Shown here: one piece after another, positions 3,507-10,911 of the stretch | Numbering within the stretch: the stretch's first letter is position 1 | Layout of the letters: each line of letters begins with the position of its first letter | The notes under the pieces: model-generated | What the model saw: the letters and a program-made list of their open reading frames with translations, nothing else | Database searches by the model: none | Told to the model about the DNA's origin: nothing | Virus genome (UHGV): UHGV-0098625 | Strand: one strand, 5' to 3' | DNA from: a virus | Length of the DNA stretch: 11,149 nucleotides | Made by a program: the position numbers and the translations under genes

Positions 3507-3639
3507 TTTTTGGGACTCCTGGCTGATTAAGTATGTCGATAAGGCGTTTCCATCCGTCACGTAATTTACGGGTGATTCGTTCAAGTAAAGATTCGGAAGG
3601 GCAGCCAGCAACAGGCCACCCTGCAATGGCATATTGCAT
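3475..3639 (-). CDS. cIII: CIII, FtsH protease inhibitor that stabilises CII, 54 aa
   Basis: Absent from the ORF track (too short). Hand translation from the ATG at 3639 gives [54 protein letters not shown], stop at 3475..3477, AGGAG RBS upstream. Matches lambda CIII and overlaps the kil start in another frame, as in lambda. Confidence 0.9.
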   Translation of the reverse strand: MQYAIAGWPVAGCPSESLLERITRKLRDGWKRLIDILNQPGVPKNGSNNYGYPD

Positions 3640-3711
3640 GGTGTGCTCCTTATTTATACATAACGAAAAACGCCTCGAGTGAAGCGTAATTGGTATGCGG
3701 TAACGCCGCGC

Positions 3712-5878: not shown

Positions 5879-5941
5879 AGTATCACCGCCAGTGGTATTT
5901 ATGTCAACACCGCCAGAGATAATTTATCACCGCAGATGGTT
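5879..5941 (-). promoter_or_regulatory. pL promoter with operators OL1, OL2, OL3
   Basis: OL1 tatcaccgccagtggta 5881..5897, OL2 caacaccgccagagata 5905..5921 and OL3 tatcaccgcagatggtt 5925..5941 are identical to lambda OL sites as recalled. Minus-strand -35 TTGACA (5907..5902) and -10 GATACT (5884..5879) with 17-bp spacing. Confidence 0.9.
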
Positions 5942-6090
5942 ATCTGTATGTTTTTTATATAGATTTATTTTTTGCAGGGTTGTGTGGATTGGGAAGGTGA
6001 TCGAGAGATCTGAATTGCGATGTTTAGTGAGTTGTATCTATTAATTTTGAAATAAATACAATTGGTTATGCGTTTTTTGGGGGGCGTTAG

Positions 6091-6130: not shown

Positions 6131-7036
6131 TCAATGCTTATTTGGGAGTGCTGGTTTTTTTATCGACTCTAATAGCTCGGAGGCGTTACTAATCTTTTTG
6201 TTCCCAAGGTAATTTGGCAGTTTTTCCATTGCGTAATTATCGTGTAGCCATTTTCTGAACACGCCAAGTGCCTCAATAGGATAAATCCAAGCTGTTATAT
6301 GCTTATTTGCAGCTGACTGCCTGTAATTTTCGGGGAATAAATGTGGGTACTGCACCCTTTCCCCGAATTTCTCAGATAGCCCATTAGCTGTCCAATACTT
6401 TCCCCAGTGAATTCCAACACTTCCATCCAAAGATGTGGTGTCATCCATTGGGAATCCTCCTCCGATCAGGTTCATGGCAATGTCAGCTATCTCTCTGAAT
6501 ACTGCAAAATGAGTTGTCGGTATCTGATCGTTTAGCTTAATCCTTGCTCTATAGTTCTCGAATGAGATATCTATTGAAGCATTTGGGTTGTAATTTGACT
6601 TTTCATAAATCATTCGCTTAAGCGTGTACTCAGCCAAGCGAACAAAATTACCTATTGCGACTGACCTATCAAAATTGGTGGCATCTAGAGCGTAGTAACG
6701 GAGGATAGCCATGCAAACATAGTCAGGATAAGCATGAGTTTCCACGTTTGAGCTATTTAAAACGCGAGTGTATAGCTTTTCGACGTTATGAAACCCTTTC
6801 TCAGCTAAATACGCAGCTACTTTTTGACCTCTGGGTTTGTTTTTCTCTGTGTTCCAGTTTGATGTGAACACCCTCAGTGGCGTGTCATCAATGCCGCATA
6901 ACTTTGCGAGACCGTAGAGAGTTAGGTAAGGAGTTCCATCATTGAGAACGCCCATAGGAATATCATCAGAAACAACCTCTACTACAGGGAAAAGCTGCAT
7001 TTGATGCAGGGATTCGCTATTGCTGTTAATCGACAT
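6131..7036 (-). CDS. hypothetical 301-aa protein in the rexA/rexB position; candidate phage-exclusion / abortive-infection protein
   Basis: ORF track. ATG at 7036 with AAGGAAA RBS; lies 86 nt downstream of the cI stop on the same strand and is followed by the terminator at 6091..6120. AT-rich relative to cI, N and exo/bet. The N-terminal segment (LFPVVEVVSDDIPMGVLNDGTPYLTLYGLAKLCGID) resembles KilA-N/Bro-N-type domains by eye. Function inferred from position only. Confidence 0.85.
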   Translation of the reverse strand: MSINSNSESLHQMQLFPVVEVVSDDIPMGVLNDGTPYLTLYGLAKLCGIDDTPLRVFTSNWNTEKNKPRGQKVAAYLAEKGFHNVEKLYTRVLNSSNVETHAYPDYVCMAILRYYALDATNFDRSVAIGNFVRLAEYTLKRMIYEKSNYNPNASIDISFENYRARIKLNDQIPTTHFAVFREIADIAMNLIGGGFPMDDTTSLDGSVGIHWGKYWTANGLSEKFGERVQYPHLFPENYRQSAANKHITAWIYPIEALGVFRKWLHDNYAMEKLPNYLGNKKISNASELLESIKKPALPNKH

Positions 7037-7122: not shown

Positions 7123-7839
<717 letters not shown>

Positions 7840-7846
7840 TTAAATC

Positions 7847-7912
7847 TATCACCGCGAGGGATAAATATCTAACACCGTGCGTGTTGACTATTTTACCTCT
7901 AGCGGTGATAAT
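7847..7912. promoter_or_regulatory. OR3-OR2-OR1 operators with divergent promoters pRM (leftward) and pR (rightward)
   Basis: OR3 tatcaccgcgagggata 7847..7863; OR2 taacaccgtgcgtgttg 7870..7886; OR1 tacctctagcggtgata 7894..7910. pR -35 TTGACT 7884..7889 and -10 GATAAT 7907..7912 with 17-bp spacer. cro RBS AAGGAGG at 7926..7932. Confidence 0.9.
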
Positions 7913-7927
7913 AGTTGCATGTACTAA

Positions 7928-8137
<210 letters not shown>

Positions 8138-8176: not shown

Positions 8177-8255
8177 ATCAAATTAAACCACACCTATGGT
8201 GTATGCATTTATTTGCATACATTCAATCAATTGTTATCTAAGGAAATACTTACAT

Positions 8256-8534
8256 ATGCAACTTACAAGTACTCGCAAGAAAGCGAATGCAATTACAAGC
8301 AACATCCTGAATCGAATTGCTGTACGTGGTCAGCGAAAGGTTGCCGACGCGTTAGGGATTAATGAATCGCAAATTTCGCGATGGAAAGACAGCTTCATCC
8401 CAAAAATGGGAATGCTTCTGGCTGTTCTTGAATGGGGTGTTGAAGACGAGGAGTTGGCGGAACTGGCTAAGCAAGTAGCCAGAATGCTGACAAAAGAAAA
8501 AGCCCCGAAGAACGGCGAATTCTTCGAGGCCTGA
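8256..8534 (+). CDS. cII: CII-like transcriptional activator, 92 aa (not the lambda allele)
   Basis: Track ORF 8196..8534; preferred start is the ATG at 8256 with AAGGA RBS, at the position of the lambda cII start. The conserved core SQISRWK...IPK..MLLAVLEWGV matches the CII family; the N- and C-termini differ from lambda CII. Confidence 0.8.
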   Translation: MQLTSTRKKANAITSNILNRIAVRGQRKVADALGINESQISRWKDSFIPKMGMLLAVLEWGVEDEELAELAKQVARMLTKEKAPKNGEFFEA

Positions 8535-8568: not shown

Positions 8569-8730
8569 ATGACAAAACGTCGTAAGAAATACCAGGAAAA
8601 AGAAGAGATTCGACACCCTGATTCACCTGAGGGATTAGTGGTAGCCGCAGCAAATAACAGGGCGTTCGCAGAACGCCTTGTTGGTGTTTACAGACTAGCC
8701 AAAGCAGGAGTGAAACATGGGCGTCGTTAA
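8569..8730 (+). CDS. putative small basic protein, 53 aa
   Basis: Absent from the ORF track. ATG at 8569 with AGGAG 7 nt upstream. Hand translation: [53 protein letters not shown], stop at 8728..8730. Overlaps the O start by 14 nt in another frame. Confidence 0.3.
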   Translation: MTKRRKKYQEKEEIRHPDSPEGLVVAAANNRAFAERLVGVYRLAKAGVKHGRR

Positions 8731-9538
8731 GTTAGCTGATTACAGGCCTCAACTGGAGGTCGTGGAGCATCGCGTGGCAGATACCGAAGATGGTTTCATG
8801 CGCGTTGCTAACGAGATTACCGACAGTCTGCTGATGGCTGATTTAACCGTCCGGCAGTTGAAGGTGATGCTCGCTATCATGCGCAAGACATACGGATTCA
8901 ATAAGCCGATGGATCGACTCACAAACACGCAGATAGCAGCCATGACAGGTATTCATCACACTCATGTTTGCGCTGCCAAGCGCCAGCTTATTGAGCGTAA
9001 ATTCCTCATTGCTGATGGCGTGAAAATCGGAGTGAACAAGGTGGTTTCTCAGTGGATTAGCCAGGACAGCTTAACATTAGCTAAAACAGCTAATAAAACA
9101 TTAGCCAAGTCGGCTAATGGGTATAAGCCAAGTCAGCTAAACACAAAAGACAATATACAAAAGACAATAAATACAAATACCCCCTTACCCCCTAACGGGG
9201 GCGGCGATGGGCAGGTTAAACCTGAACGTCGCAAGGCAGAACGAATCGACTACGAATCCTTCCTGAACGCCTACAACACCGAAGTCGGTGACAGACTTCC
9301 ACACGCTGTTGCGGTCAACGAGAAACGAAAACGCCGCCTGAAGAAAATCATCCCGCAACTGAAAACGCCAAACGTGGACGGTTTCAGAGCGTATGTCAGG
9401 GCGTTTGTGCATCAGGCCAAGCCGTTTTACTTCGGAGACAACGACACGGGCTGGACGGCTGATTTTGATTACCTGCTGAGAGAAGATTCGTTAACGGGAG
9501 TTCGTGAAGGGAAGTTTGCAGACAGGGGGATTGCATGA
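8717..9538 (+). CDS. O: replication initiator, O family, 273 aa
   Basis: ORF track. AGGAG RBS. The N-terminal region ([32 protein letters not shown]) resembles the lambda O N-terminal DNA-binding domain (lambda: LTKRQFKVLLAILRKTYGWNKPMDRITDSQL). Origin-like iterons lie inside the gene. Stop overlaps the helicase start (ATGA). Confidence 0.85.
9057..9180. other. putative replication origin inside O: four iterons plus an AT-rich tract
   Basis: Iterons ttagccaggacagcttaa 9057..9074, ttagctaaaacagctaa 9077..9093, ttagccaagtcggctaa 9101..9117, taagccaagtcagctaa 9124..9140 (each an internal inverted repeat, about 23-bp period), then the A/T-rich 9141..9180 (acacaaaagacaatatacaaaagacaataaatacaaatac). 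Confidence 0.75.
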
Positions 9539-10911
9539 AACAGGATATCGAAGCGAGCGTTATCGGTGGCCTGCTGATTGGTGGATTAACACCAACTGCC
9601 AGTGACGTTCTGGCAACGCTTGAGCCGGAAGCGTTTTCAATTCCGCTCTACCGGAAAGCCTTCGAGGTTATCCGCAAGCAGGCGCGAAACAGAAATTTAA
9701 TCGACGCGCTGATGGTCGCCGAGGCGTGCGGAGAGGAGCATTTCACGTCAATCCTGATGACCAGCAAAAACTGCCCGAGTGCCGCAAACCTGAAGGGATA
9801 TGCCGGAATGGTCGCGGATAACTATCACCGCCGTCTGGTGCTGGAAATCATGGATGAAATGCGTGAACCAATTCAGAGCGGAACCATCGACGCATCGAGT
9901 CAGGCGATGGATGAGCTTGTAAAGCGTCTTTCAGCCATCAGAAAGCCCCGTGACGAGGTTAAACCTGTACGGTTAGGGGAAATCATCACCGACTACACTG
10001 ACACGCTTGACAGGCGTCTGAGGAACGGAGAAGAGTCAGATACCCTGAAGACCGGAATCGAAGAACTTGATGCCATCACCGGAGGGATGAACGCGGAAGA
10101 CCTGGTGATAATCGCTGCTCGTCCTGGTATGGGGAAAACCGAACTGGCGCTGAAGATTGCCGAAGGCGTTGCAAGCCGCGTTATTCCTGGTTCTGACGTC
10201 CGGCGCGGGGTATTGATTTTCTCAATGGAAATGAGCGCATTGCAGATTGCAGAGCGAAGCATTGCCAACGCCGGGAGGATGTCGGTTAGCGTACTGCGAA
10301 ATCCTGCATCGATGGATGACGAGGGCTGGGCACGTGTTGCTAACGGCATGAGTCAGCTTGCAGATTTGGATGTATGGGTAGTCGATGCCTCGCGGTTATC
10401 GGTCGAAGAAATTCGCTCAATCGCAGAACGGCACAAACAGGAAAATCCAAACCTGTCACTCATCATGGCGGATTATCTTGGCCTGATTGAGAAGCCGAAA
10501 GCAGACCGCAACGACCTCGCAATTGCTCACATCTCAGGAAGCCTGAAGGCGATGGCGAAAGACCTGAAAACGCCTGTTATCTCCCTAAGTCAACTTTCGC
10601 GCGATGTTGAGAAGCGACCAAACAAACGCCCGACAAACGCAGATTTGCGTGATTCAGGAAGCATTGAACAGGACGCAGACTCAATCATCATGCTCTATCG
10701 GGAAGCGGTATATGACGAGAACAGTAGCGCCGCGCCATTTGCTGAAATCATCGTGACGAAAAACCGTTTTGGCTCACTTGGTACGGTTTACCAGCGGTTC
10801 TGCAACGGACACTTTGTTGCATGTGACCAGGATGAAGCCAGACAGATTTGCACAGCATCAAATGCACCTGCTGCTCGTGGCAGACGATATGCACAAGGGG
10901 CTGACGTATGA
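9535..10911 (+). CDS. DnaB-family replicative helicase, 458 aa (takes the place of lambda P)
   Basis: ORF track. Walker [17 protein letters not shown], Walker B-like LIMADYLGL, and the IISLSQLSR and [14 protein letters not shown] motifs typical of DnaB-type helicases. Size and position match the P22 gene 12-type helicase. Confidence 0.9.

Follow-up and report, generated by a model that had tools for sequence, protein, structure and literature searches.

Iterons and A+T-rich DNA inside the O-like gene

The stretch of viral DNA studied here (UHGV virus genome UHGV-0098625, 11,149 nt, hereafter the window) represents the early region of a lambdoid phage or prophage, as judged from the list of open reading frames (ORFs) and domain searches. 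On its plus strand, at 8717-9538, lies a gene for an O-like replication initiator of 273 amino acids (aa), and the candidate replication origin that is the subject of this work is located inside this gene. The gene was assigned on the basis of the ORF list and of Pfam, TIGR, and PHROG searches: the protein matched Pfam PF04492 Phage_rep_O at aa 19-113 (E = 5.8e-33), TIGR01610 at aa 21-113, and PHROG 345, “replication initiation O-like” (E = 3e-105). It is 51% identical overall to P22 gp18 and 42% identical to lambda O across the N-terminal 134 aa. On the basis of domain models and an AlphaFold (AF2) prediction, the N-terminal domain (aa 1-113) is encoded at 8717-9055 on the plus strand and is predicted to be an iteron-binding winged helix. 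The C-terminal domain (approximately aa 176-273, 9242-9535, plus strand), delimited by a helical block of the AF2 model, is presumed to recruit the helicase. A Pfam search at E = 1 returned no family for the C-terminal 119 aa or for a small upstream ORF, and the C-terminal region gave weak PHROG matches to “DnaD-like helicase loader” families (E = 3e-8). The next gene (9535-10911, plus strand), at the position of lambda P, codes for a 458-aa DnaB-family replicative helicase, identified by Pfam (DnaB_C, E = 9.5e-78, and the DnaB N-domain) and TIGR (TIGR00665/TIGR03600). The homologous helicase is named “P: replicative DNA helicase, similar to DnaB” in HK97 and “gene 12” in P22. The O and helicase ORFs are both intact in the window.

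The repeat search of the O gene identified a single family, with four 18-nt copies whose start-to-start distances are 20, 24, and 23 bp. The underlying unit is a 17-mer composed of a 6-bp arm, a 5-bp spacer, and a second 6-bp arm (TTAGCC-N5-GGCTAA). Iteron 1 (ITN1, 9057-9073, TTAGCCAGGACAGCTTA) has two arm mismatches to the 6+5+6 palindrome and its first base falls at codon position 2; iteron 2 (ITN2, 9077-9093, TTAGCTAAAACAGCTAA) and iteron 3 (ITN3, 9101-9117, TTAGCCAAGTCGGCTAA) have no mismatches and both start at codon position 1; iteron 4 (ITN4, 9124-9140, TAAGCCAAGTCAGCTAA) has two arm mismatches and starts at codon position 3. Allowing up to two mismatches, the motif TTAGCYN5RGCTAA had six matches in the window versus 1.19 expected, four of the six within 84 bp, and none of 200 shuffles reached six matches. 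ITN1 starts in codon 114, one codon past the end of the Phage_rep_O/TIGR01610 domain (aa 113), and the four iterons encode aa 114-142 of O. The initial annotation of this DNA, made from the sequence alone, had described four iterons of roughly 17-18 bp, each with an internal inverted repeat, at a spacing of about 23 bp. The four 17-mers, two perfect and two with two arm mismatches, agree with this description, while the spacing was given only approximately.

Immediately to the right of the iterons, at 9141-9180, lies a 40-bp A+T-rich tract, the presumed DNA unwinding element, with a GC content of 22.5% and 26 A and 5 T on the plus strand. It falls in the lowest 0.7% of the window's 40-mers by GC content, and the region includes the lowest-GC 40-mer of the O gene. 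It contains a tandem 14-mer, ACAAAAGACAATAT/ACAAAAGACAATAA, at 9143-9156 and 9157-9170, and encodes aa 142-155 of O. The opening of the tract, CACAAAAGACA-TAT-ACAAAAGA, is common to the window and lambda, the lambda A+T region beginning with CACAAAAGACACTATTACAAAAGA and that of the window with CACAAAAGACAATATACAAAAGA. Both the iterons and the tract are inside ORF 8717-9538, as the initial annotation had stated.

A further inverted repeat, CCCCC-TAAC-GGGGG, is found at 9188-9201. Taken singly it is not significant, as 54 of 300 shuffles equalled it. In most homologues it is seen as a C5/G5 stem with variable loops; it is replaced by GTCATC-N4-GATGAC in two loci (L065 and L080), missing in three (L056, L067, and L084), and broken by point changes in close relatives. 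Lambda likewise has a palindrome on the right-hand side of its A+T region. The repeat of the window could be a DNA element of that kind, or it could reflect a P-P-x-G-G hinge in the protein.

The initial annotation had also placed the origin in the linker between the N- and C-terminal domains of O, and three observations bear this out. The N-domain models end at aa 113, homologues have iteron-coding segments of 86 to 176 nt, and the AlphaFold prediction, computed on a 30-sequence alignment, has a predicted local distance difference test (pLDDT) value below 50 at aa 108-175, between two better-predicted blocks. The variable length and the low pLDDT between better-predicted blocks point to a tolerant linker. 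The model is weak overall (mean pLDDT of 52.5, predicted template modeling score of 0.31) and was used solely for this coarse two-domain pattern. Its N-terminal block, predicted with moderate confidence, has helices at aa 45-60, 70-77, and 81-93 and a beta hairpin at aa 97-106, which corresponds to a winged-helix layout. Among the homologues, three deviate in length or domain content. One otherwise HK97-type O (L039) carries an in-frame 24-aa duplication in the N-domain, which is either an assembly artefact or a real variant. Two others (P0006 and P0007), 97-99% identical to the window protein, are much longer (474 and 446 aa) and carry the extra Pfam domain PF16532; gene fusion or a frameshift in the gene call may account for them.

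Relation to the origins of P22, lambda, and HK97

The origin annotated in P22 gene 18 (rep_origin, NC_002371.2, 32840-32984), aligned with the A+T tract as anchor, maps without gaps to 9057-9201 of the window, and the two agree in architecture and in their position within the gene. The left end of the span proposed by the initial annotation (9057-9180) thus coincides exactly with that of the P22 feature; on this homology, the origin probably runs beyond the proposed right end, to 9201, so that the interval homologous to the P22 rep_origin includes the inverted repeat at its right edge. A 57-bp block (9139-9195), comprising the A+T tract and CCCCCTTACCCCCTAA, is perfectly identical to P22 (L004, 3423-3479). 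All its synonymous positions are the same as in P22, compared with an identity of 41-49% at the third codon positions of diverged N-domains. Either constraint acting on the unwinding element or recurrent recombination at the junction may explain this identity.

The iterons themselves differ. The P22 arms are TTTACC..GGTAAA versus TTAGCC..GGCTAA in the window, the iteron segment is 53% identical, the N-domain is approximately 40% identical, and the predicted recognition helix starts with MAPTKCST in P22 and with IHHTHVCA in the window. Given these differences, an origin specificity unlike that of P22 is expected. The window therefore does not carry the P22 18/12 module with P22 specificity, although the two agree in architecture, A+T tract, and helicase type (P22-type loci have a helicase approximately 90% identical to that of the window). 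P22 gene 18 has been described as containing four repeats of about 20 bp unlike those of lambda, in a family of proteins that vary with origin specificity (PMC8022706). Neither inhibition directed at ori-lambda nor the dnaB-grpD55 block acts on a lambda hybrid that has received P22 genes 18/12 (PMC3349717).

In the lambda RefSeq genome, the iterons start at 39034, 39054, 39078, and 39101, that is, with the same 20/24/23 spacing as in the window. As in ori-lambda, the window has four dyad-symmetric iterons of 17 bp in the same 6+5+6 register and in a fixed array, located within the gene and directly past the Phage_rep_O N-domain, followed at once by an A+T-rich region of about 40 bp; the operon context (pR-cro-cII-O) is also the same. 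In lambda, O dimers occupy the four inverted repeats and melt the A+T region of 40 bp; the origin is also activated by transcription (PMC5043065). The lambda arms, in contrast, are TCCCTC..GAGGGA, the C-terminal half of lambda O is unrelated (14% identity), and the next gene in lambda is P, a loader that hijacks the host DnaB, whereas in the window it is a complete DnaB-family helicase. With this helicase downstream and TTAGCC..GGCTAA arms, the window lies outside the strict lambda O/P module. Comparing the iterons of the three phages, the geometry is shared while the arms differ. This agrees with the initial annotation, which had recognised an iteron-type origin embedded in O, organised as in lambda with other iteron sequences. 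The theta plasmids P1, F, R6K, RK2, and pSC101 also have an array of initiator sites beside an A+T-rich unwinding region and, as in the window, an initiator encoded beside its sites (PMC5043065). Unlike plasmid iterons, which are direct repeats bound by monomeric Rep outside the rep gene, the repeats of the window are inverted, intragenic, and presumably bound by dimers; the analogy is functional only.

The closest relative is HK97, in which the same gene order is found (small ORF, O, DnaB-type helicase), its genes O and P being gp54 and gp55. Positions 8600-9600, covering O and its flanks, are 98.6% identical to HK97 at the nucleotide level, and a three-way alignment showed that HK97 is identical to the window through the iterons, the A+T tract, and the inverted repeat. 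The few point differences are all outside the origin, and none is substantive. The helicase of the HK97-derived locus L016 is 99.3% identical to that of the window, and the near-identity of O gene, iterons, and helicase makes this an HK97-type O/helicase module. The HK97 record itself carries no rep_origin annotation. The same 1-kb region is 98.5-99.0% identical in HK97, Nil2, the Stx phages 1717, 2851, and YYZ-2008, HK544, HK446, and mEp213, and in several Salmonella P22-like phages, SPN9CC and ST104-type among them. In all, 196 phage records match the 1-kb origin region, while the best single sequenced phage covers 60% of the window. Among 5,426 complete E. coli genomes, 395 have the O gene at a coverage of at least 80%, nearly always on the chromosome; 752 of the 756 places are chromosomal prophages. 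Across the phage collection, N-domain identity to the window is 95% or more in 51 records and otherwise below about 65%, which indicates a discrete class. HK97 has been listed as a prototype of replication specificity of its own, with ST104 98% identical to it (PMC2629481). Full-text searches for the exact HK97 or P22 iteron sequences found no paper in the literature collection searched.

Taken together, 9057-9201 is very probably the theta-replication origin of a lambdoid phage or prophage with an HK97-type module, composed of an O-like initiator and a DnaB-family helicase. The arrangement as such is already known, being the textbook lambda layout with a different, already recognised specificity.

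Selection on the iterons and modular inheritance

The iterons start in codon phases 2, 1, 1, and 3 and so encode different peptides rather than a repeated one; three reading frames across four iterons imply that selection acts on the DNA. We compared the window with eight homologues of the same arm class (class A, below). Their N-domains are 54-62% identical to that of the window at the protein level, 62-68% at the nucleotide level, and 41-49% at third codon positions. The 48 iteron-arm positions, in the same eight homologues, are 85-94% identical, and the 5-bp spacers 55-75%. In a profile of 36 class A iterons, information is highest in the arms (T1, G4, C5, G13, C14, and A17 are invariant) and lowest in the centre, the pattern that would be expected for a site bound by a symmetric dimer.

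To look at the iterons across the family, we used a viral contig scan that provided 80 loci with O homologues 48-100% identical to that of the window. In all 80 loci, palindromic 17-mers are found at the fixed offsets -86, -66, -42, and -19 from the A+T anchor. The arms, in turn, fall into at least six classes, each with its own start of the predicted recognition helix. Class A includes the window and HK97 (TTAGCC..GGCTAA; helix start IHHTHVCA), class B P22 (TTTACC..GGTAAA; MAPTKCST), class C L059, L060, and L066 (GTTACC..GGTAAC / GGGAAC; ISRPKA), and class D L068-L070, L074, and L081-L084 (GTCACC..GGTGAC; LPRQKVN). Class E, found in L076-L078, has TTAGC(G/T)..GCTAA arms in up to seven copies and the helix start KHHTHCST, its outer TTAGC being as in class A, and the lambda class has TCCCTC..GAGGGA with LPVKRCN. 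Two class E contigs from IMG/VR (L077 and L078) carry seven TTAGC-type iterons versus four and have an O linker 27 aa longer, so that iteron number and linker length are both free to vary.

Arm class follows the N-domain of O, and especially the start of the predicted recognition helix, not the C-domain. Residues 79-86 (IHHTHVCA) are invariant in all class A homologues, down to an N-domain identity of 54%, and differ in the other classes. In seven loci (L045 and L049-L054), a P22-type N-domain and P22 iterons are combined with a C-domain 97-100% identical to that of the window. Conversely, L056, L063, L065, and L067 have a C-domain only 42-54% identical to that of the window, yet class A iterons. 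The distinct initiator and origin specificity suggested by the initial annotation is thus in line with the tracking of arm class and N-domain class across the 80 loci, and HK97 was already considered a specificity of its own (PMC2629481). As the iterons lie in the linker-coding part of the gene, the DNA-binding domain and its presumed sites are joined on the DNA and would pass on together as a single specificity unit.

The other parts of the region behave differently. C-domain identity correlates with the identity of the downstream helicase (Spearman 0.78), compared with 0.47 for the N-domain, and the A+T-tract variants of other lineages are shuffled relative to both flanks. The crossover points coincide with the short, near-universal sequences ACACAAAAGA to the left and CCCCCTTACCCCC to the right of the A+T tract. 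We tentatively suggest, giving the idea slightly less than an even chance, that the region is a scaffold of fixed geometry in which three sub-modules reassort independently by exchange at ACACAAAAGA and CCCCCTTACCCCC: the N-domain with its iterons, the A+T tract, and the C-domain, usually together with the helicase.

Genomic context, proposed mechanism, and alternatives

In the genes around the origin, the lambdoid order is recognisable. Domain searches identified a CI-type repressor gene on the minus strand (7123-7836) and, on the plus strand, a Cro gene (7937-8137) and a CII gene (8196-8534), and Bet/Exo recombination genes are also present in the window. A consensus scan found a pR-like promoter (TTGACT-17-GATAAT, 7884-7912, plus strand; 10 of 12 consensus matches) upstream of cro-cII-O-helicase. 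Transcription from this promoter would cover O and run across the origin; an origin-activating role may be supposed from lambda (PMC5043065). A 53-aa conserved ORF (8569-8730, plus strand; phrog_1331) takes the place of gp53 in HK97 and of orf48 in P22 and shares 14 nt with the start of O. On the minus strand, a strong terminator-like hairpin (8500-8532) is seen where cII ends, which is the position of the oop terminator in lambda and P22; the Rfam scan did not report the OOP family at this hairpin. The same scan of the whole window, at gathering thresholds, returned no family at the origin, and its sole match was the cIII thermoregulator (Lambda_thermo, 3594-3652, minus strand), a full match with 88.5 bits against a gathering score of 50. 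Adjoining cI, at the lambda rexAB position, a 301-aa ORF on the minus strand (6131-7036) encodes the abortive-infection protein BstA (PHROG 6287, E = 6e-133; PADLOC BstA, E = 1.3e-105), for which Pfam gave no match. PHROG labels it a replication inhibitor, so that the prophage is predicted to carry a defence gene against the replication of other phages. Just downstream of this ORF, at 5930-6060, the DNA is A+T-rich.

Beyond the anatomy, homology, DNA-level conservation, and N-domain co-variation shown above, we infer by analogy with lambda how binding, unwinding, helicase recruitment, and origin firing would proceed. O dimers would bind each of the four dyad-symmetric iterons (9057-9140) through the N-terminal winged-helix domain, with the TTAGC arms probably recognised by IHHTH (aa 79-83), where the predicted recognition helix starts. 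The four bound dimers would then form a bent nucleoprotein complex that, on negatively supercoiled DNA, could open the A-rich tract at 9141-9180, possibly aided by rightward transcription from pR. The C-terminal domain of O would bring in the DnaB-type helicase that the phage itself encodes in the next gene, rather than use the lambda route through P and host DnaB, and the host primase and polymerase would take over afterwards. That a phage helicase replaces P and host DnaB is a known trait of the P22-type module (PMC3349717).

Three other explanations of the repeats were considered. They could be a by-product of a peptide repeat in the O linker, selected at the protein level and without any function as DNA. 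Indeed, iterons 2 and 3 share a frame and encode LAKTAN and LAKSAN; but iterons 1 and 4 lie in the other two frames and encode the unrelated ISQDSL and YKPSQL, and the conservation of the arms far exceeds the third-codon-position background. Moreover, a peptide repeat does not require the arms to be dyad-symmetric, and in the other classes both arms change jointly with the palindrome kept. On the grounds of reading frames and arm conservation we rejected this explanation, whose probability we regard as negligible. Alternatively, the palindromes could act mainly as nucleic-acid hairpins, either in the mRNA, controlling translation or stability, or as single-stranded DNA signals, for example for host defence sensors, rather than as duplex sites for O. 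The 96-nt iteron region has a folding energy of -17.5 kcal/mol as single-stranded DNA (z = -5.3 versus shuffles), ITN3 scores as terminator-like on the minus strand, and a 2026 preprint proposes that the OLD defence protein senses lambda iteron hairpins (10.64898/2026.07.10.737580). Hairpin potential, however, follows automatically from dyad symmetry, the stems are of just 6 bp, and every class A locus has two imperfect ones among the four. Furthermore, a pure hairpin function does not require the co-variation of arms and N-domain, and the homologous lambda sites bind O dimers as duplex DNA (PMC5043065). We thus consider a main role as hairpins very unlikely; hairpin formation is possible as an additional property rather than as an alternative.

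The repeats could finally be a relic, in a copy carried by a defective prophage or in a type of phage whose replication starts elsewhere. The limited match to any single sequenced phage (60% of the window, as stated above) and the predominance of chromosomal prophages among the E. coli occurrences are in favour of this possibility. Against it, the O and helicase ORFs are intact, the region is 98.6% identical to the viable HK97 and, over 1 kb, 98.9% identical to inducible Stx phages, and the iterons are conserved under evident selection in diverged lineages. We judge a relic to be just as improbable as a main role as hairpins.

Several points weigh against our interpretation of 9057-9201 as an active origin. 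Iterons 1 and 4 are imperfect palindromes, and the tract at 9141-9180 is not the least stable DNA of the window, the region at 5930-6060 being lower in GC content. For O binding and origin firing, the argument is homology with lambda and P22, and the P22 rep_origin annotation is itself worded “similar to phage lambda”. This particular copy may be in an active phage or in a defective prophage. A search of the PDB with the O protein sequence found no relative even at E = 1 and, with a low-confidence model, the terms “disordered linker” and “recognition helix” are tentative assignments. The correlation between C-domain and helicase comes from related, non-independent loci and has exceptions, P22 being one, with a C-domain 56% and a helicase 90% identical to those of the window.

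With the iteron array and A+T tract interpreted as an origin, the rep_origin feature, which the HK97 record and its relatives lack, can be transferred to them from P22. This locates the origin in a prophage replication module that is very common and occurs in many Shiga-toxin phages. Nothing in this is biologically unexpected; the family-wide comparison illustrates how modules are exchanged and may help to plan binding experiments. Defence systems able to sense origin hairpins might be a further influence on iteron diversity. If the scaffold of reassorting sub-modules is real, the arm classes and helix starts would amount to a readable protein-DNA recognition code for a family without a solved structure, with the pairs IHHTH/TTAGCC, KHHTH/TTAGC(G/T), MAPTK/TTTACC, ISRPK/GTTACC, LPRQK/GTCACC, and LPVKR/TCCCTC. 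Should this code hold, the design of mutually orthogonal origins would be possible.

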